64,000 nucleotides of DNA from Nanobdellota archaeon (lineage in GTDB: Archaea > Nanobdellota > Nanobdellia > Pacearchaeales > GW2011-AR1). Each line of letters begins with the position of its first letter. Position 1 is the stretch's first letter. Made by a program: the position numbers and the translations under genes. Where the stretch lies: contig JBBSXC010000004.1 of assembly GCA_038045945.1 (NCBI GenBank), positions 160,001-224,000 of the forward strand, in the 5' to 3' direction. A model generated the notes under the pieces. The model saw only the letters and a program-made list of their open reading frames with translations, had not been told where the DNA came from and did no database searches. Of this stretch, positions 26,477 through 34,807 are shown piece after piece.

Positions 26477-26635
26477 GAAAAGTAAACTAAAGCAAGCCTA
26501 TTAATAGTTTACTAATCCTAAAACTCCCAGTTACGAGACCTAAAACACACTTTTCCTCACGCAAAAAGATTCAATCTAAAACTAAAACTTCTTGCGAAAG
26601 CTAATAAAGAAAAATTAAAGAAAAAATGTCCCAAA

Positions 26636-26773
26636 TTAAGGAACGAAGCTAAGAATTCCAGCAATGATTAGGTAAACTCCAACAGCCCACCTTAAAAGAC
26701 CAGGCACAGCTAGGACTAAAATACCCACCAATATAGCTAAAATTCCTGAAATTGTTAAACCAATAGATGCCAT
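26636..26773 (-). CDS. DUF3096-like small membrane protein (45 aa)
   Basis: Not in ORF track. MASIGLTISGILAILVGILVLAVPGLLRWAVGVYLIIAGILSFVP; SD GGAGGT upstream. Confidence 0.8.
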   Translation of the reverse strand: MASIGLTISGILAILVGILVLAVPGLLRWAVGVYLIIAGILSFVP

Positions 26774-26889
26774 TTTTTTTGACCTCCAAGAAACAAAAAG
26801 CCAAGAACCAATAAAAAACTAAGTAGTATATTTCTCGACTAAAAACCCTAAAATCGTAAAAATAAAAATAAAAGAATGTTAGAGGGTAA

Positions 26890-27030
26890 CTAGTTCCCCA
26901 AGAAACTAATAAGCCCTATAGCAATCAAGTAAAGGCCAAGAGCCCACCTGAGAAGCTTAGGAACAAAGATAACCAGAAGACCAGCAACGATAGCCAGAAT
27001 TCCAGAGATTGCAAGACTAATAGCAACCAT
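26890..27030 (-). CDS. DUF3096-like small membrane protein (46 aa), paralog
   Basis: Not in ORF track. MVAISLAISGILAIVAGLLVIFVPKLLRWALGLYLIAIGLISFLGN; shares ISGILAI..G...P.LLRWA.G.YLI..G. Confidence 0.8.
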   Translation of the reverse strand: MVAISLAISGILAIVAGLLVIFVPKLLRWALGLYLIAIGLISFLGN

Positions 27031-27031
27031 C

Positions 27032-27211
27032 TTATTTATACGAATAATTCCTAACTAGCTTACTAACACCAATAGCTAAGAACGAAAGAGCAACGACCCA
27101 ATCAACCCATAGAGCTGTAAAGACACTAAGGGCAGAAGAAAGGTAAGCACCCATTCTTAACGTTAATAAAAGTCCAATAAGTGTAACGAGCCAAGCAGTA
27201 AGTTTTGCCAT
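27032..27211 (-). CDS. Small two-TM protein (59 aa)
   Basis: Not in ORF track. MAKLTAWLVTLIGLLL...WVVALSFLAIGVSKLVRNYSYK; GGGGG SD; stop 1 nt before the next ATG. Confidence 0.7.
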   Translation of the reverse strand: MAKLTAWLVTLIGLLLTLRMGAYLSSALSVFTALWVDWVVALSFLAIGVSKLVRNYSYK

Positions 27212-27385
27212 AATTATAACCCCCTTTAGAAAATAGAAAGGAAACGAAATTATATAAACCTATCGTGAAAGGGTAAAGATATGACGATAAAGTATGAGAA
27301 ATCCATTAAAACGAAGATGGCCAAAAGATTAAAAATTACTAACGCAAACTACCTAAAAATTTAACAACATCTGCAAGACCTATCG

Positions 27386-27492
27386 AGGCTGTTTAAGGGT
27401 GTTTAGAGGTGTTTAAACAGCTGTTTGTTGGAATAAAATACAGTTTAGAGGTGTTTAAACAGCTGTTTGTTGGATTCATTCCAACAGATAAT
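27386..27492. repeat. Non-coding iteron-like repeat hub
   Basis: TGTTTA at 27390/27400/27410 (10-bp phase); exact 32-bp direct repeat GTTTAGAGGTGTTTAAACAGCTGTTTGTTGGA at 27401-27432 and 27443-27474; inverted repeat TGTTGGA-N5-TCCAACA at 27468-27486. Confidence 0.9.
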
Positions 27493-27611
27493 TAGCATTC
27501 ACAGAGACGAGAGACAAAATAAGAAAATAAAAGTTAAGAAAGAGCATTTCTGCCGTCGAGAAAGAATCTACTCAGAAAACATTTAAATAGTCTTTTTTGC
27601 AATAAAATAAC

Positions 27612-28235
27612 ATGTTTGATTGGATTTTTGGAAAGAAAAAAGAGGTAGAAAAGGTTAGGACAGACACAAAGAAAGCCTTTGAAGGGGTAAAGGAAGATAT
27701 AAGCAGCATTTCTAAATGGCTTGAACACCTTAAACAGGCAGACGAACAAGGAAAAAAGCGTTTTGATGATATAGATGAGAGATTATCCTCGATAGAATCA
27801 GACTTAAACACTATAAAAAATTTTGCGCTAGGTGGAAAAAACAAACAGCCGTTTAAACAGCAAACAGCTGTTCAAGGCAAACAAACAGTTGTTTATGGTG
27901 TTCAAACAGGTGTTCAAACAGGTGTTCAAACAGGTGAAAGTAGCGAATTATTGGTAAGGAACTTATCAGTTATGGAAAGGGCATTAGTATATGTTTTAAT
28001 GAATAGTGAAATGAAACTGAGCTATGATGACCTGGGAGCGATGCTTGGAAAGACGAGAGCAACTATCAGAGGCCAAATAAACAGCATAAAGCAGAAAAGT
28101 GAGGGAGTATTAGAGGAGATTATAGAGAAAAATGGTAAAAAAAGAGTGTTTATACCTGAGGAAGTAAAGGAAATACTGCTCAAAGACGCAAAAGTGAGAG
28201 TTAAGAAGGACAAAAAAGAGAAGAAAAATGAGTAA
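27612..28235 (+). CDS. Coiled-coil / repeat linker / winged-helix DNA-binding protein (gene A)
   Basis: N-terminal heptads; linker KQTAVQ...GVQTGVQTGVQTG; C-terminal LSVMERALVYVL...LSYDDLGAMLGKTRATIRGQINSIK helix-turn-helix plus wing. Confidence 0.75.
   Translation: MFDWIFGKKKEVEKVRTDTKKAFEGVKEDISSISKWLEHLKQADEQGKKRFDDIDERLSSIESDLNTIKNFALGGKNKQPFKQQTAVQGKQTVVYGVQTGVQTGVQTGESSELLVRNLSVMERALVYVLMNSEMKLSYDDLGAMLGKTRATIRGQINSIKQKSEGVLEEIIEKNGKKRVFIPEEVKEILLKDAKVRVKKDKKEKKNE
27840..27936 (+). repeat. Intragenic repeats in gene A
   Basis: AACAAACAGCCGTTTAAACA (19/20 to reverse complement of hub repeat core), AAACAGCTGTT, AAACAGTTGTTT, then GGTGTTCAAACA x3.3 (27897-27936). Confidence 0.9.
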
Positions 28236-28505
28236 AATGAGCTTAAAAAGATCATAAAGTGAGAGTTAATACGTAAGACATGCTAAAAACATCATGTCTA
28301 GCAGGATGAGAGAAAAAAGATACGTAAAAAGTAAGAGTTGAGCAAAAAATACAGCAAAAAGAGAGAGTAAAGATAAAAAGCCTTAAAAATAACTCTATAA
28401 GGCCTATAAAAACAGAAAGTAGCTATAGCGCTACCATGTTAATCGTTATACAGAATAAAGGAAATTTTAGATTTTTAGTCCTTAAAAGGGTTAAAAATAA
28501 GGTTT

Positions 28506-29333
28506 TTAGAGCTCAATAAGCTTTAAAATGGTGTCTAAGGTAGCTATCTTTTTGAGATCTGGAGATATCCTGAGAATAACTTTCTTATTATTTATCTTTT
28601 CTTTGTCTATGGGTATACCTTTAGCGACGATCTTCCCTATATAGTCCCTTATAGAGCTCTCAGAAAGACCTAATCTTACGGCTATAAGCCTATAATCCGC
28701 ATCTTCGCCCTTTTCCTCCAAGGAATAGAGTAAAGAGAAGACTTGAAACTCCATTGGTGTTAATTGTTTAAACTTGCGCCTAATTTCCTTCTTAATACCG
28801 TCGAGAGTGTCAAGAACCCTCAAGGCTTCATCAAAGTCGTTTGCTTTACTAGTTTGAGAGTTAAGAGAGTATGAAGAGGGTAAAACCAGGCTGGGATTGT
28901 CTGTTGGTCTGTCTGTTGGTCTGTCTGTTGGAACCCCCCTATTTCCACTGGAAATAGCCATATTTTGACCTTTTAGAGCCTCTAAAGAGGGCATATGTGT
29001 TGGAGTTTGTGGTTGAAATGTTGCATTTTGAAGGTTATCTGTTGGATTATGTGTTGGAACGACTGCTACAGGGGGCAAAGGGGCTGTTTTTGCTTCTTGA
29101 GAAACGTTTTTCATCTCTTTTATTGCGCGATCTATTGACTCACTAATGCTTTTTTCAGTGTGGTCTAACTTTTCAGAGAATAATTCTTTTATGTGAGCTA
29201 TAGAAAAAGCTATTTTATCATCAGTTGATATCCTTAAAGAGTTAATCTCTGCGTTTAGTGCGTAAAATTCTTTTGACAGTTGGGTAATATCATCTCTTAC
29301 TTTATCAAACGCCTCTTTGATTCTCGGATCCAT
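28506..29333 (-). CDS. Coiled-coil / repeat linker / winged-helix DNA-binding protein (gene B)
   Basis: N-terminal heptads (EAFDKVRDDI, cf. gene A KAFEGVKEDI); linker ISSGNRGVPTDRPTDRPTD; C-terminal LTPMEFQVFSLLY...DYRLIAVRLGLSESSIRDYIGKIVAKG HTH plus wing. Confidence 0.8.
   Translation of the reverse strand: MDPRIKEAFDKVRDDITQLSKEFYALNAEINSLRISTDDKIAFSIAHIKELFSEKLDHTEKSISESIDRAIKEMKNVSQEAKTAPLPPVAVVPTHNPTDNLQNATFQPQTPTHMPSLEALKGQNMAISSGNRGVPTDRPTDRPTDNPSLVLPSSYSLNSQTSKANDFDEALRVLDTLDGIKKEIRRKFKQLTPMEFQVFSLLYSLEEKGEDADYRLIAVRLGLSESSIRDYIGKIVAKGIPIDKEKINNKKVILRISPDLKKIATLDTILKLIEL
28898..28931 (-). repeat. 12-bp tandem repeat inside gene B
   Basis: TGTCTGTTGGTC x2.8 on + strand; further TGTTGGA copies at 28995-29004, 29035-29046, 29047-29058. 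Confidence 0.9.
28934..28957 (-). promoter_or_regulatory. ORB-like element with G-string inside gene B
   Basis: Minus strand CTATTTCCAGTGGAAATAGGGGGG: 9-bp perfect dyad containing TTCCAGTGGAAA followed by G6. Confidence 0.7.
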
Positions 29334-29387
29334 AATTACTAGTCATTATAAAACGTTAATAAAGATTTGTGGTCTAGAGAAAAGTAT

Positions 29388-29660
29388 TTATGAAGAAACA
29401 TTCTTGTAAGCTTTATGGGCTTTAGACGTCAGCGACCACCTTATTCTACGTATATACACATCACCGTCTGAATTCTTTCTTATCGGTCTCACTAAACCCT
29501 TATTTTCAAGCTCGATTAGCAAGGACTTAATAAACTCTTCATCTCTAGCTTCTTCACGACTTATCTGAGCAGTAAACATCGCTTGAGGATATTTGTGGAA
29601 CAACAACGAAAGAATGTTAGACATAATCTTATCCCTCTTTTCTTTAGAAAGCTTACTCAT
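29388..29660 (-). CDS. Small winged-helix protein (gene C)
   Basis: From ATG 29660 MSKLSKEKRDKIMSNILSLL...FTAQISREEARDEEFIKSLLIELENKGLV...RRIRWSL. Confidence 0.7.
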   Translation of the reverse strand: MSKLSKEKRDKIMSNILSLLFHKYPQAMFTAQISREEARDEEFIKSLLIELENKGLVRPIRKNSDGDVYIRRIRWSLTSKAHKAYKNVSS

Positions 29661-29730
29661 AAAAAGAAGAAAGAATGGGGTATTTTTATACCTTGTGATA
29701 AGAAAAAGACAAATACTTAGCAAAAAATTA

Positions 29731-30246
29731 TTATTCTCTCTTATTAATAACCAAGCCAAGGGTGTTAGAGACCTTCTGGGCTAACTGTCCCCCAGATTCG
29801 GAGAACTTCCAATAAAATAGAACGGGCTTTTCATTTGTTCGCACCATGAATTTTCTTAGTGAAGAGATACTAGCCTTGAGAGCTAAGCCCTTACCTCTAA
29901 AAGGTCCCTTAATTACTGCAACACACATGTAAACAGAATCGTAACTTATACGACTACTTTTTATCAGTTCAAGAAGCTCAGATTCTGTAATAAAATTATT
30001 ACAGAACCGTTCCATGAGTTCTAATGAGCAAGGAAACATATTTACACAACCAATAACTACCCCATCACTCTTAATAATATTAAAAAGTTCAGGAGCATTC
30101 TTTGAAGACCAACTGTCTTTTCCAGGATGAGTCTGAGCTTGATAAGGGTCAGCAGCAGTATTAAAGTACTCTTTGATAAGTGACCGGGCGGAGTCCTGAT
30201 CTTTTATAGAAAGAGCATCATTAGAATCCGAAGAGAAAGTGATCAT
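29731..30246 (-). CDS. Hypothetical protein, GNAT-like
   Basis: VYMCVAVIKGPFRGKGLA resembles the acetyl-CoA-binding motif A. Confidence 0.5.
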   Translation of the reverse strand: MITFSSDSNDALSIKDQDSARSLIKEYFNTAADPYQAQTHPGKDSWSSKNAPELFNIIKSDGVVIGCVNMFPCSLELMERFCNNFITESELLELIKSSRISYDSVYMCVAVIKGPFRGKGLALKASISSLRKFMVRTNEKPVLFYWKFSESGGQLAQKVSNTLGLVINKRE

Positions 30247-30278
30247 TACACAAGAACCAAAGCCATTTTATTTAAACC

Positions 30279-30857
30279 TTACTTTTTTTGCTGTTTATTA
30301 GGATTATTGTTGTGCTTGTTAGGATTTTGATTACTACTCTGTTTGTTTTGAGATTGGCCATTGTTCTGCTTATTAGAATTTTGGTTATTGTTCTGCTTAT
30401 TAGAGTTAGGGGTCTGACTAGCAGAAGGTTGATTACTGGAAACTACAGCCTCATCTACCTGACCTCTAAACTGAGGAATTTGAATATGCTTAGGAAGATT
30501 AAAGTCCTCTTCAAATTGCATAGCCTTAACAGTGCAACGAGCCATAATAAAGTTAAATAAAGGAACCCTAACAAGATCAGGAATTTTCTTATCATTCCAA
30601 CGCTTAAGAATATCAGCAGCTGACTTCTTATCAAGAGCAACAAGAATGTTACCATTAAAAGAAATCTTAGCTATATCCTTATCATAAGAAATTCTAAACT
30701 CAAAACTGAAATTAAGAGCCTCTTCATCTTTAATAAAATCAACCTTGATTTGCTGAATATCCTTAATGTTGATACCATTACTAACATTAAAGTTAGCATT
30801 AGGCTCGGAAAGCTTCTCAGCAAACTGCTTGGTTAAACCAAAACTAATAACTCTCAT
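30279..30857 (-). CDS. Conserved archaeal protein (SecB-like fold suspected) with N/Q-rich repeat tail
   Basis: Beta-rich N-terminal part (F.F.F.ISY....AKI.F.G), helix, LP.HIQIP; tail NSNKQNNNQ-type nonamers. Confidence 0.6.
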   Translation of the reverse strand: MRVISFGLTKQFAEKLSEPNANFNVSNGINIKDIQQIKVDFIKDEEALNFSFEFRISYDKDIAKISFNGNILVALDKKSAADILKRWNDKKIPDLVRVPLFNFIMARCTVKAMQFEEDFNLPKHIQIPQFRGQVDEAVVSSNQPSASQTPNSNKQNNNQNSNKQNNGQSQNKQSSNQNPNKHNNNPNKQQKK

Positions 30858-31033
30858 AAAAGAAAGTAGAAAAGTTGCTTTTTAAACTTTCGGATTCCAC
30901 AGTATATGAATCAAAAAGTATCAAAGCCCAAAAAGAGCAAAAGATTGGAAAAATTAGGAATAAACCTTAAACTAGTTAGAAAACAAAGGGAGAACCTAAT
31001 GAGAAGTACAAATAAAGATTTTAATCAGCATAA

Positions 31034-31294
31034 CTAAATTAAGTCTTCTTCAGAAACAACAACAAAATCGCCAACAGCAATAATGGAGTTGTAAGGAACT
31101 AAGGCTTCCTTAAGTTGAGTTGACTCAAGATTAAGATTCTTAATGTAAGGAGTAGGATCTTTAACAACAAGATGTATTAATTCACCAGTTCTTGTTTCAA
31201 AGGTAATATCCTTAACCATACCAAGCCTCTTACCCTCTTTTGTCACAATCAGTTTACCAAGAATGGCACTGAAAGGTTTCTTATCAATTGTCAT
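31034..31294 (-). CDS. PRC-barrel domain protein (CdpB-like)
   Basis: ILGK.IVT..G..LG.V.DI.F...TG.L, VPY..I.AVGDFVVV. Confidence 0.88.
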   Translation of the reverse strand: MTIDKKPFSAILGKLIVTKEGKRLGMVKDITFETRTGELIHLVVKDPTPYIKNLNLESTQLKEALVPYNSIIAVGDFVVVSEEDLI

Positions 31295-31643
31295 GAAGAG
31301 TACAAATAAAAATTCTTTATAAACTTTTCTACAGTGGATAGATATAATAAACTAAGACAAATCATCGAGTAATAATACAAAAAATCATTGAAAACCAACG
31401 ATAATAAGACATATTTAGCATTCAATGAAAAAACAAAAATAATAACTTTCTAATTTATGAGTAATAATATAACAGTTAAAGAATTAAGAAAGAAAAACAG
31501 ACTAAAATATACAATTAAGAGAAGAAACAAGAGCAAAACATAAAAATAATAAGATTATTATCACTACAATAAGGAAAAGTAGTACCTAAATACTGGTTTT
31601 AGGGCTTAAAGATCCTAAAATTAAGAAGAATAAGACTTATTAG

Positions 31644-31923
31644 ACCCCCACTCCTACGTTTCTTGTGGAAACATTTAAAAAAGAAAAATATTTTATTGGT
31701 TTCTTATTATTCATTTATAAATATTTATATTATATAATATATATAATATAATACTATTAATTACAAAGGTTCTTTTCATATGATTTTTACTCATTAATTC
31801 TCCATAGGAAAATAAGGTTAGCTTTATTTGTTCTTTTTATCGAATACAAACACAAAAACATGAGGTTTTCGATGATAAATTTTGCTACTAGAGAGTTTCC
31901 ATAGGAAATGATGGTGTGAGGGT
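31644..31923. other. Candidate replication origin (oriC): inverted ORBs flanking AT-rich DUE
   Basis: 29-bp imperfect inverted repeat: revcomp(31644-31672) GTTTCCACAAGAAACGTAGGAGTGGGGGT vs 31895-31923 GTTTCCATAGGAAATGATGGTGTGAGGGT (22/29); third copy TCCATAGGAAA at 31801; 41-nt pure A/T run 31713-31753; directly upstream of cdc6. Confidence 0.85.
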
Positions 31924-31992
31924 TATAGTGCTTTTAAGTATCTAAAGTTTTATAAAAGAAATAAAATGATAATATTATAGGTGATAAAAAAG

Positions 31993-33222
31993 ATGGTTGA
32001 AGAACAAAAAGTAGAAGGAAAAATTAACTCAATATTTGACTCATTTACAAAAGAAAGCATATTCAAAAACAAGAGCTTTCTACAAATAAAACATCTGCCT
32101 GAAGATATACTCCATCGAGACGAACAATTACAACAAGTCGCTAGTATCCTAGCACCCGCACTTAGAGGTGAAAGAACAAGTAACCTATTCGTTTATGGAC
32201 AAACAGGCACAGGAAAGACTATTTGCGTCAAGTATATCAGAGACCAATTACTAAAAAAAGCTCAAAGCACAGGAGCACCACTAAGAATTGAATATCTTAA
32301 CTGTAAACTAAAAAAGGTTGCTGATACAGAATACAGGATTTTAGCAGAACTAATAAAAAAATTAGGAGGAGAAGTACCATCAACAGGCCTACCCACAGAC
32401 CAGGTCTATAATAAATTCATTGAGATAATAGAATCAAAAAAACAAACATTCCTACTAATACTTGATGAAATAGACCAAGCGGTTAAAAAGATCTCAAGCG
32501 ACTTCCTATATAACCTAACACGTCTCAACTCAGAACTAGAACAAACAACCGTAAGCATAATAGGTATAAGCAATGACCTAAAATTCTTAGACCTAATCGA
32601 TCCAAGAGTAAGAAGCAGCTTATCAGAAGAAGAAATAATCTTTGCACCTTACAATGCACTACAATTACAAGACATACTAAAACAAAGAGCTGACTCATCA
32701 TTCAAACCAGGAGTACTAAAAGAAGGAGTAATCGCTAAATGCGCAGCTTACGCCGCAAGAGAACACGGAGACGCAAGAAGAGCATTAGACCTATTAAGAA
32801 TATCAGGAGAAATAGCTGAAAGGATGACAGAAGGAACAATAGAAATCAAACACATCGATATGGCAAACGAAAAAATTGATAGGGATAAAATATTAGATAT
32901 AATATCAGCAGCACCAAAACAATTCCAAATAGTATTATTAGCATCAATTGACCTAATAAGCAAAAATAAAGAACAAAACACAAAAATCTTCACTGGAGAT
33001 ATATACTCATTATACCAGGACTTATGTTCTAAGAGCAGAAACGAGATACTAACACAAAGGAGGGTTAGCGACCTAATAGGAGAATTTGATATGTTAGGAC
33101 TAATAAACGCAAGAGTTGTAAGCAACGGAAGACATGGAAGAACAAGAGAAATAAAACTCCTTATACCAGACCAAATATTACCGAGAGCTAGAGAAATAAT
33201 ACAAAATAATTTGAACTTCTAA
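31993..33222 (+). CDS. cdc6: Orc1/Cdc6 replication initiator
   Basis: Walker A GQTGTGKT, Walker B LILDEID, DPRVRSSL, GDARRALDLLR, C-terminal wH; SD AGGTGA before ATG 31993. Confidence 0.97.
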   Translation: MVEEQKVEGKINSIFDSFTKESIFKNKSFLQIKHLPEDILHRDEQLQQVASILAPALRGERTSNLFVYGQTGTGKTICVKYIRDQLLKKAQSTGAPLRIEYLNCKLKKVADTEYRILAELIKKLGGEVPSTGLPTDQVYNKFIEIIESKKQTFLLILDEIDQAVKKISSDFLYNLTRLNSELEQTTVSIIGISNDLKFLDLIDPRVRSSLSEEEIIFAPYNALQLQDILKQRADSSFKPGVLKEGVIAKCAAYAAREHGDARRALDLLRISGEIAERMTEGTIEIKHIDMANEKIDRDKILDIISAAPKQFQIVLLASIDLISKNKEQNTKIFTGDIYSLYQDLCSKSRNEILTQRRVSDLIGEFDMLGLINARVVSNGRHGRTREIKLLIPDQILPRAREIIQNNLNF

Positions 33223-33226
33223 AAAA

Positions 33227-34807
33227 ATGAATAGAGAAATACTAAAATTTTGTTTAGAAAAAGGGTGCTTAATAGATAAAGAAGCATGCGAAATACTAGA
33301 AAACTTTGAAAATATAGAAATAGCTAAAAAAATCATTATTTCACTAACAGACATACTAAAACAAAAAATAATAACTAAATCAAACATAATAAGCCACTCA
33401 AAACAGATAGAAACATTTGTAGAACAACTAGGAGAAAGAACAACCATAGAAAAAATTAAGATAAGCCTAGGAATAAACATTGAATTATCAAAAGAAACAG
33501 TAGAAAAAACATCAGAATTGGAAACGATTAAGAAAGAATCTAAAGTCAGAGTACTAACAAGCCATTCAGCACTTGAAGAAAAAGTGGAAGTTGAAGACTT
33601 CATCAAACACTTCAAAGCAAGATACGGGGCAATAAGAAACATATTACAACAAAGAACAGAACTAGAAAACCTAACCTCAATAAACAAATTAGGTAACAAA
33701 AGACAAAACGTATCAATAATTGGAATGATTTATGACAAAAGACTAACAAAGAACAAAAACCTAATAATAGAAGTAGAAGACCTAACAGGAAGAATAAGCG
33801 TACTAATAAACAAAGACAAAGAAGACCTTAACGAAATAGCAAAAAGAATGCTACCAGATGACATCATAGGAATAAAAGGCGTTGGTGACAAAGAATTCTT
33901 ATTCGCTAACGGAATAATATACCCAGACTCATTCCTAGAAGAAAAACACAGAATAGAAGAAGACGAATCAATAGCATTCATATCAGATGTACATGTAGGA
34001 AGTAAACTATTCCTAAAAGAAAAACTACTAAAATTCATAGAATGGCTTAACGGAAACTTAGGCGGAGAAGAAGAAAGAGAAGAAGCACTAAAAATAAAAT
34101 ACTTGTTTGTAGTAGGAGACACCATTGACGGAGTAGGAGTATACCCAGGACAAGAAAAATTGTTAGAATTAGTAAACATTGAAGACCAATACAAAGAACT
34201 AGCAAGATACCTAAAAATGATAAGAAAAGACATAACAATAATACTCTCACCAGGACAACATGACTGCGTAAGGGTAGCAGAACCACAACCACCAGTAGGA
34301 AAAGACTATGGATACGCACTACACGAAATAGAAAACCTAATACTAGTAAGCAACCCAGCACTAATAGAAGTAGGATTCAAAAAAGACGAAAAAACAAAAC
34401 TTGAAAAAAGGGGCTTCCGAGTACTGATGTACCACGGAGCAAGCTTCCACCTAATAATTAACGAAATAGACGAACTAAGAATGTCAAAAGCACACGACTC
34501 ACCAACAAAAATAATAAAATTCTTACTAAAAAGAAGACACCTATCACCAGTACACTCATTCAACCCATACATACCAAACCCAGAAAAAGACCCAATGGTA
34601 ATAGACATAGTACCAGACATAGTAGCAACAGGAGACTTGCACAAATCAGACATAGACATATACCAAAACATACTAATGATAGCATCAAGCTGCTGGCAAT
34701 CAACAACACCCTTCGAAGAAAAAGTAGGAAACCACCCAGACCCATGCAAAGTACCAGTATTCAACATGAAAACAAGGAGGCTAAAAGTCCTAGACTTCGC
34801 AAACTAA
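33227..34807 (+). CDS. polB: DNA polymerase D small subunit DP1
   Basis: OB fold (EVEDLTG); phosphoesterase motifs SDVHVGS, GD..DGVGVYPGQ, PGQHD, YHG, RRHLSP, SCWQ.TT. Confidence 0.95.
   Translation: MNREILKFCLEKGCLIDKEACEILENFENIEIAKKIIISLTDILKQKIITKSNIISHSKQIETFVEQLGERTTIEKIKISLGINIELSKETVEKTSELETIKKESKVRVLTSHSALEEKVEVEDFIKHFKARYGAIRNILQQRTELENLTSINKLGNKRQNVSIIGMIYDKRLTKNKNLIIEVEDLTGRISVLINKDKEDLNEIAKRMLPDDIIGIKGVGDKEFLFANGIIYPDSFLEEKHRIEEDESIAFISDVHVGSKLFLKEKLLKFIEWLNGNLGGEEEREEALKIKYLFVVGDTIDGVGVYPGQEKLLELVNIEDQYKELARYLKMIRKDITIILSPGQHDCVRVAEPQPPVGKDYGYALHEIENLILVSNPALIEVGFKKDEKTKLEKRGFRVLMYHGASFHLIINEIDELRMSKAHDSPTKIIKFLLKRRHLSPVHSFNPYIPNPEKDPMVIDIVPDIVATGDLHKSDIDIYQNILMIASSCWQSTTPFEEKVGNHPDPCKVPVFNMKTRRLKVLDFAN

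Follow-up and report, generated by a model that had tools for sequence, protein, structure and literature searches.

What do arrays of short DNA repeats do inside the reading frames of two genes that stand beside an archaeal replication origin? The question is raised by a locus in a 64,000-nucleotide stretch (the window) of contig JBBSXC010000004.1 of a groundwater Nanobdellota archaeon, whose genome comprises 847 kb in 7 contigs with 35% G+C. The locus holds two convergent genes, here called A and B, a third small gene, C, and the gene encoding the initiator Orc1/Cdc6 (cdc6). The original prediction, made from the sequence alone, described A and B as proteins with an N-terminal coiled coil, a linker encoded by perfect 12-bp tandem repeats and a C-terminal winged helix, and saw in the locus a self-targeting initiator, fork barrier or centromere-binding module. 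Our analysis points to a different answer: the linker-coding DNA of A and B appears to be overprinted with origin-accessory protein-binding sites, a reading to which we assign a probability of about 0.6. Three observations that underlie it were not part of the original prediction, namely that the conserved element in the linker of B is, by its sequence, an origin recognition box (ORB), that the 12-bp repeat of B is a decayed tetranucleotide tract, and that A and B are paralogs.

An origin recognition box and a repeat tract in the linker of gene B

The linker of B encodes a canonical archaeal ORB, TTCCAnnGGAAAT-nnn-GGGGT, in 27/27 orthologs, and the synonymous sites of this element are invariant. 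In the window the ORB dyad TTCCAnnGGAA(A) is matched exactly at 28943-28953, and the G-rich element, GGGGGG, lies 2 nt after GGAAAT; the dyad is retained in all 27 orthologs, and GGGGT is kept in them as well. The codons TCC-AnN-GGA-AAT-nnn-GGG-GTT are fixed as DNA in every ortholog: serine is encoded by TCC in 27/27 (background 12%), the two glycines by GGA in 27/27 and by GGG in 27/27 (background 20% for GGG), valine by GTT in 26/26 and aspartate by GAC in 21/21 (background 34%). At the conserved residues of B, the modal codon is used in 178 of 184 cases within the motif versus 492 of 828 elsewhere in the gene. The synonymous sites of the winged-helix domains vary freely, whereas those of the linker motifs are nearly frozen. 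The view that the constraint acts on DNA rather than on peptide, already advanced in the original prediction, is thus very probably correct.

By sequence and context, the element in B is an ORB. The core TCCANNGGAAA occurs at only four sites in the 847-kb genome: B has one, the region upstream of cdc6 has two, and the fourth is elsewhere. Three of the four are no more than 3 kb apart, at or near cdc6, and the site in B is the only full match that includes the G run. The canonical oriC upstream of cdc6 consists of a left ORB on the - strand (31641-31670, 1 mismatch, GGGGG), an AT-rich stretch at approximately 31690-31770 and two + strand ORBs at 31799 and 31897, so that inverted boxes flank the AT-rich element. 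Because the box in B shares the consensus of these oriC boxes, it is likely a site for Orc1/Cdc6, and we consider it probable that the site is a working one. Its orientation is that of the left-arm box of oriC. The start of B is 2.65 kb from the start of cdc6 and the origin proper is about 2.3 kb away; the early estimate of a cdc6 origin about 2.3 kb beyond B therefore holds for the origin and not for the start of cdc6 itself.

This arrangement extends far beyond the window. Of 301 genomes of the class, 130 contain the 21-nt ORB pattern, usually as a single copy, while its reversed control gave 0 in every genome among those listed. All 20 extended loci combine an ORB in B with ORBs upstream of cdc6. 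Of 18 distant loci, 15 carry an ORB in B and the other three are without a detected B. In the families in which A was not detected, 5 of the 10 loci inspected have the 21-nt pattern next to cdc6, in non-coding DNA. The ORB is retained in B even in loci where cdc6 has moved to a distance of 6-16 kb. A second ORB was seen in B of some relatives (loci L079, L042, L046, L049, L050 and L088); it lies on the same strand and about 43 nt from the first in L042 and L088, and on the opposite strand in L079, L046, L049 and L050.

Directly after the ORB in B comes a C+A-rich tract of around 30-40 nt with a period of 4. Tandem Repeats Finder reports it in the window as a perfect 12-bp tandem repeat (28898-28931, TGTCTGTTGGTC, 2.8 copies, 100%), and this repeat is a decayed form of the (ACAG)n tract that follows the ORB in the taxonomic order to which the window belongs and is read in frame as T-D-R-Q. 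In other lineages the unit is CATT, TTCA, CAAT, CAAA, CACT, GCAC or a 12-mer, and since the unit changes, the encoded peptide is unrelated between lineages. The periodicity itself persists. Over 48 sites in 42 loci, the self-identity of the sequence following the ORB reaches 0.58, 0.60 and 0.53 at lags 4, 8 and 12 versus 0.20-0.34 at other lags, and no period-3 signal was detected at these sites. The 28 oriC-proximal ORBs gave no period-4 signal, the values being 0.30-0.35 at lags 3, 4, 5, 6, 8 and 12. The B linkers contain no in-frame stop codon in 5976 nt, compared with 105 and 136 in the other two frames.

Boxes in the linker of gene A and upstream of it

The linker of A also contains a perfect 12-bp tandem repeat (27897-27936, GGTGTTCAAACA, 3.3 copies, 100% by Tandem Repeats Finder); both genes, according to the open reading frame list, and both repeats lie where the original prediction had placed them. 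The underlying DNA word, CAG[GC]TGTYYA, was found 80 times in the linkers of 29 A genes. It is read as T-x-V-Q/Y in 57 cases and as Q-[LV]-[FS]-K in 23, and both frames are used in 18 of the 29 genes. In the codon for x of the xVQT repeats, identity at the third base is 0.93-0.97, and it is the first two bases that vary; third-position identity in A is 0.87 in the motif versus 0.60 elsewhere. Among non-coding copies of the box, 94 of 108 contain TGTTTA. The copies in the V-Q-T frame end in TTC (37), TTT+T (11) or TCC (9), departing from TGTTTA+A because that word would create a TAA stop codon; the coding boxes look like the nearest versions that the genetic code allows. The A linkers, like those of B, are free of in-frame stops (0 in 3915 nt, compared with 55 and 107 in the other two frames).

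The same boxes occur upstream of A, in a non-coding hub (27386-27492) that contains two exact 32-nt direct repeats, at 27401 and 27443. Both sequence matches that had been noted between the hub and the genes were found, the 19/20 complementarity of 27410-27429 to 27840-27859 in A, and the exact 12-mer TCCAACAGATAA at 27480, which recurs on the other strand at 29035 in B. The latter is weak when taken alone, as 4 of 100 shuffles gave at least 3 matches with no more than 1 mismatch. The palindrome in the hub has a similar counterpart in L002, a relative from the same genus. In the 847-kb genome, ACAG[GC]TGTT[TC] occurs 8 times, always within the hub or the linker of A, and [GC]TGTT[TC]AAACA also occurs 8 times, with 7 of these copies in this 5-kb locus. 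Across the relatives, [GC]TGTTTA occurs 94 times in 8.4 kb upstream of A (11.2/kb) versus 27 times in 72.2 kb elsewhere (0.37/kb), and in many loci the region preceding A shares exact matches of 13-41 nt with the gene, above the shuffle maxima. At least three A-type boxes precede A in 18 of 28 relatives, so the upstream array that the original prediction expected in relatives is present in most of those of the family. No AT-rich block was seen beside the A or B arrays on reading the sequence. Most likely, a dimeric winged-helix protein of the cluster itself recognises the A boxes. A plausible but more tentative proposal is that proteins of the cluster bind the tract in B as well as the A boxes.

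Table 1. Coordinates of the genes and DNA elements of the locus, as positions in the window
Feature	Position	Strand	Remarks
Gene A	27612-28235	+	207 amino acids; open reading frame list
Gene B	28506-29333	-	275 amino acids; open reading frame list
Gene C	29391-29660, within open reading frame 29388-29759	-	small winged-helix protein; same strand as B, upstream of B
orc1/cdc6 initiator gene	31981-33222	+	PolD small subunit gene directly after
ORB inside B linker	28932-28956	-	TATTTCCAGTGGAAATAGGGGGGTT, codons I-S-S-G-N-R-G-V
Period-4/12-bp tract	28898-28933	-	CCAACAGACAGA x3 on the B strand, encoding the PTDR repeats
Three TATGTGTTGGA-type boxes	28994-29058	-	P-T-H / P-T-D codons, B linker
A-box array in A linker	27839-27936	+	KQPFKQ...GVQTGVQTGVQT; one DNA word, two reading frames
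Non-coding hub, A-type boxes	27386-27475	+	G[GC]TGTTTA, extended to GGTGTTTAAACAGCTGTTTGTTGGA x2
Hub palindrome (B-type box)	27468-27491		TGTTGGA-ttcat-TCCAACA + GATAA
Canonical oriC	31641-31922		inverted ORBs around AT-rich stretch, upstream of cdc6
CCGTCGA box	27553-27559		~25 nt upstream of TATA-like TTTAAATA (27582-27589); putative A promoter
Oriented AAGTGAGAGTTA boxes	28192-28270	+	one over A codons K-V-R-V, one in A-B spacer
TTAATCGTTATACAGAATAA	28439-28458		local form of the TTATTCGGTnnAACGA box past the B stop codon

Proteins of the cluster, their conservation and neighbouring elements

The common architecture proposed for A and B is borne out by AlphaFold2 models. The model of A comprises a helix (2-72), a low-confidence stretch without secondary structure (73-110), a winged helix (approximately 120-180) and a C-terminal helix. 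In B a helix (3-81) precedes a region with a predicted local distance difference test (pLDDT) score below 50 over most of 88-161, and the C-terminal part, within 165-274, contains a helix and a MarR-like winged helix (193-256). The linkers of both proteins are thus predicted to be disordered. Profile comparison with hhalign (probability 95.3%, E 2e-8) indicates homology over the whole length, and on this sequence evidence A and B are paralogs that share one build, in which a disordered linker joins a long helix to a winged helix. In the alignment the GVQT repeats of A stand opposite GVPTDRQTD of B. The likeness of GGTGTTCAAACAG to GGGGTTCCAACAG (11/13) was considered as a sign of co-variation between the A linker and the B tract and set aside, as the paralogy of A and B explains it better.

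The C-terminal domain of B has the three helices and beta wing of a MarR-like fold in its AlphaFold2 model, and Foldseek relates it to MarR/ArsR/CodY-type winged helices (E 3e-4 to 6e-3, template modelling score by target 0.33-0.58). The fold comparison with WhiP, RTP, RacA and Rep proteins that had been suggested gave no support to such a kinship; none of these was among the top matches listed, which are of the generic type. The third gene, C, is indeed an open reading frame upstream of B, as described, but its Pfam match, HTH_69, remains below threshold (23.4 bits vs a cut-off of 27). As for family membership, the Pfam matches to HTH_11, HTH_36, Sigma70_r4 and the ParB helix-turn-helix domain all fall below their cut-offs, and no NCBIfam model reaches its cut-off for the proteins of the cluster. 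PDB profile searches with A and B returned only coiled-coil noise and weak helix-turn-helix matches, and the ESM Atlas only unnamed or HTH_11-type clusters, mostly from Nanobdellota.

At E <=0.001, database searches retrieved 2324 relatives of A and 1094 of B, and the close homologs of both carry the source names Pacearchaeota or Nanoarchaeota. In whole-genome searches A was found in 35 of 41 relatives, including 12/12 high-quality genomes. Among 301 genomes of the class, 102 have A, and within its own family the figure is 52 of 56. B is convergent to A in 28 of 30 fetched loci; of the other two, one is truncated and one is a fragment in which B is nonetheless present. C is upstream of B wherever the flank of the fetched loci extends that far. 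The linkage to cdc6 suspected from the window is kept in relatives: A and cdc6 share one contig in the host genome and in 23 relatives, at a distance of 2.2-16 kb and without exception on the same strand. In the remaining genomes A and cdc6 are located on separate contigs, in several of them with cdc6 near a contig end. The A-B-C cluster is an origin-linked cluster, kept in nearly all the relatives searched; it is conserved in the taxonomic order of ultra-small Nanoarchaeota/Nanobdellota archaea to which the window belongs, and in allied families.

Further DNA elements recur around the three genes. CGTCG-type boxes occupy the same place, about 25 nt upstream of the TATA-like element of A, in many relatives; the version in the window, CCGTCGA, has 15 sites in the genome, two of them in the window (27553-27559 and 28798-28804). 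A[AG]GTGAG[AGT][AG] boxes occur 63 times on the + strand and 0 times on the - strand in 9.7 kb of A tails and A-B spacers (loci L001-L030), compared with 16 in 90.6 kb elsewhere. The first of these oriented boxes overlaps the last codons of A, where V195 of K-V-R-V is the rare codon GTG in 18 of 21 genes. In an alignment-free list of the 3' flanks of B, a TTATTCGGTnnAACGA-like inverted repeat is kept in relatives about 10-60 nt from the stop codon, possibly as a terminator or as a site of the recombinase type. Between the cluster and cdc6, the - strand gene at 30279-30857 encodes a 192-aa protein of no known family with an N/Q/K-rich C-terminal tail, which is itself encoded by 27-nt tandem repeats (30302-30403). 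On the scale of the contig, almost all 5-kb bins across 300 kb have a positive AT skew and GC skew wanders, with neither an origin nor a terminus signal being clear.

Weighing the explanations

We propose that the linker DNA of A and B doubles as protein code and as a cis-acting chromosomal signal. The ORB in the linker of B, with the period-4 tract directly adjoining it, would be bound by Orc1/Cdc6, and the boxes in the linker of A, together with the non-coding array upstream, would be bound by a dimeric winged-helix protein of the cluster. The GVQT and PTDR/TDRQ peptide repeats would then be largely by-products of in-frame DNA elements in a tolerant, disordered linker. The locus as a whole may constitute an accessory nucleoprotein module that couples Orc1/Cdc6 occupancy, the binding of A, B and C, and the expression of A and B. 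Which protein binds which site, and with what effect on origin firing, we infer.

Several results weigh against this proposal. All relatives compared are kin, so the p-values overstate the evidence. The GC skew of the whole 304-kb contig has no turning point at the locus (187-192 kb) and, for that reason, is uninformative on the origin. No AT-rich unwinding element was seen beside the B ORB on reading the sequence, and the layout of inverted boxes around such an element is absent there, the B box being single in the window; in L079 the two ORBs converge on the repeat tract with their G runs inward, which is the opposite of the canonical oriC layout. The upstream hub is weak or missing in 10 of 28 loci and no clear hub was seen upstream in distant families. 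The B-type TGTTGGA box is found upstream of A in 5 of 28 loci only, so that of the two motif types which the original prediction had united in the hub, the A type recurs in most relatives and the B type in few. Shared exact 8-mers gave no sign of co-variation between the A linker and the B tract (0.70 and 1.4 in matched genomes, 0.92 and 0.92 in mismatched ones), and without an excess in matched genomes we do not claim it. Finally, in the raw table the recognition helix of B goes with the repeat unit, S[SA]xRDY with ACAG, xCIRxY with A[AT]TC, and SGxRxY with AAAC, ACGC or ACTC; the RD helix is accompanied by ACAGAC in 24/29 vs 0/11 cases and the CIR helix by TCAWTCA in 4/5 vs 0/35. On a quick tree of A proteins with many open forks, this amounts to 1-3 independent contrasts only (p 0.5-1), and the association is a lead only.

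Among the alternatives, the one that survives best, though we hold it to be unlikely, stays close to the module envisaged originally: A and/or B would bind their own linker DNA as a second-origin initiator, a centromere or partition site or a fork barrier, largely independently of Orc1/Cdc6. The presence of box arrays in the genes' own linkers, and for A also upstream, fits such self-targeting, as does the raw association of helix and unit, and the convergence of the paralogs places the arrays in a large inverted layout around a spacer with its own oriented boxes. Yet the best-conserved element is an ORB, the type of site used by the standard initiator, the unwinding element expected at an origin is not seen beside it, the top fold matches listed for B are generic MarR-like domains without Rep, RTP or RacA, and the helix-unit association shrinks to the few independent contrasts given above.

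Slightly more improbable is the idea that the ORB alone is functional, and that the tracts arose as by-products, through slippage or gene conversion beside a protein that is tightly bound, and are tolerated in the linkers and trimmed only by the reading frame. The sequence of the unit is not conserved across lineages, the linkers are disordered according to the models, and many genomes carry the tract as a pure microsatellite, in which perfect period-4 repetition extends over as much as 42 nt, or about 10 units. However, the tract keeps the same position and a similar overall length in nearly all lineages, and its copies within one genus (L083-L086) differ by substitutions and not by length. 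The A boxes also recur outside the gene, in non-coding arrays that reach 30 times the background density upstream of A.

A constraint on RNA is far less plausible. RNA from the hub would pair with the messages of A and B, or the boxes would fold within the mRNAs to control translation; hub positions 27410-27429 are 95% complementary to 27840-27859, and CTGTTTGTTGGA of the hub could pair with the B message given one G-U pair. The core boxes are, on the other hand, palindromes without a spacer (AAACAG|CTGTTT), a form suited to dimeric proteins on duplex DNA and unsuited to hairpins, the upstream boxes occur in both orientations, the ORB is by consensus a DNA element, and Rfam gave no match at E <=1 in 26500-32200.

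Tetranucleotide repeats inside open reading frames, similar to the tract in B with its units of up to about 10, are characteristic of bacterial contingency genes, and the tract could by analogy be a slippage-driven phase-variation switch for B. This is very improbable: all 27 B orthologs are in frame, same-genus copies are equal in length, and out-of-frame length variants among close strains, which mark a phase-variable gene, were not found. A weak additional test comes from aligned Logan contigs of four groundwater runs, which belong to one study and represent at most two samples, one of them possibly the source of the window DNA; the contigs contain no variant letters, insertions or deletions, although contigs hide rare variants. 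The search for sequencing runs that contain the locus listed no RNA run. In two of these runs (X1 and X2) the summed contig depth rises from around 12-25 to 414-479 at 27867-27947 and to 54-127 at 28920-29000, where contigs end. These jumps probably reflect the contigs of many co-occurring relatives with these exact DNA motifs, and are not independent evidence.

Least of all do we favour selection on the peptides as short linear motifs combined with ordinary codon bias, the likeness to the hub being coincidental: the GVQT and TDRQ repeats show peptide conservation within the order and V-Q-T uses common codons, but rare codons (TCC, GGG, GAC, CAG) are fixed, the codon for x of xVQT is better conserved at its third base than at the other two, one DNA word is read in two frames and has non-coding copies, and the peptide changes completely between lineages while the period-4 DNA persists, so that this explanation is close to refuted.

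Known systems provide partial parallels to the arrangement proposed here. Matsunaga et al. 2007 (PMC1904270) describe a cluster of ORBs within the coding region of dp1 in Thermococcales, and in Pyrococcus such intragenic boxes are conserved across genera and bound by Cdc6 in chromatin immunoprecipitation. TTCCAGTGGAAAT followed by the G run is the core of the Pyrococcus furiosus ORB1 probe given there, on the other strand. The two systems share this core and G run, the clustering of boxes around cdc6, the presence of intragenic boxes in a neighbour gene and the gene order, with cdc6 followed by the PolD small subunit gene. They differ in that the box here lies in the disordered linker of a winged-helix gene, does not follow cdc6 when that gene moves, and is succeeded by a period-4 tract that oriC boxes do not have. 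In the PolD small subunit gene of the window (33227-34807) the ORB core was not found, unlike in Thermococcales.

The origin of phage lambda lies inside gene O, and iterons lie inside plasmid rep genes. There, as here, repeated sites are located within a gene, where it codes for the connection between two domains of a protein that binds DNA; the clearest element of the present locus is, by its sequence, a site for another protein, Orc1/Cdc6, and the adjacent AT-rich unwinding element is not evident. MarR/ArsR/CodY regulators share the fold that is modelled for the C-terminal domain of B, but the N-terminal helix of 70-80 residues and the long linker are foreign to those families. In the bacterial DnaA-trio, as here, a short-period tract directly abuts the initiator box, while the tract described here has a period of 4 instead of 3 and a unit that is not conserved, and stands on the G-run side of the box, inside a gene. 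We know of no single-strand binding by a period-4 tract. A comparison with Haloferax oapA was set aside, because in the literature listing this name now belongs to a paper on a small GTPase. A bolder version of our proposal, in which ORB and tract form a new archaeal origin element, a counterpart of the bacterial initiator box plus trio, with A and B acting in cis on their own linker DNA and the recognition helix of B co-evolving with the unit, is speculative and, in our estimation, improbable. If it were true, origin licensing would be wired directly to the transcription and translation of two origin-binding proteins.

Among the papers listed by our literature searches, none described replication origins in DPANN archaea, an ORB with a tetranucleotide tract or an intragenic origin element of this kind, and the term 'origin recognition box' occurred in none of those listed for DPANN origins. 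Intragenic origin elements as such are already known, from the dp1 ORBs of Thermococcales and from the lambda origin. What appears to be new is the placement in the linker of a conserved pair of winged-helix genes, the reach across a whole class and the period-4 tract. The locus provides a sequence-defined origin region for a whole class of archaea. It is also a clean natural example of dual coding: signals of the chromosome take precedence over the choice of codons and may even dictate peptide repeats. Three uncharacterised, nearly universal winged-helix proteins become candidate origin factors, and the period-4 tract beside the initiator box offers a concrete, testable feature.

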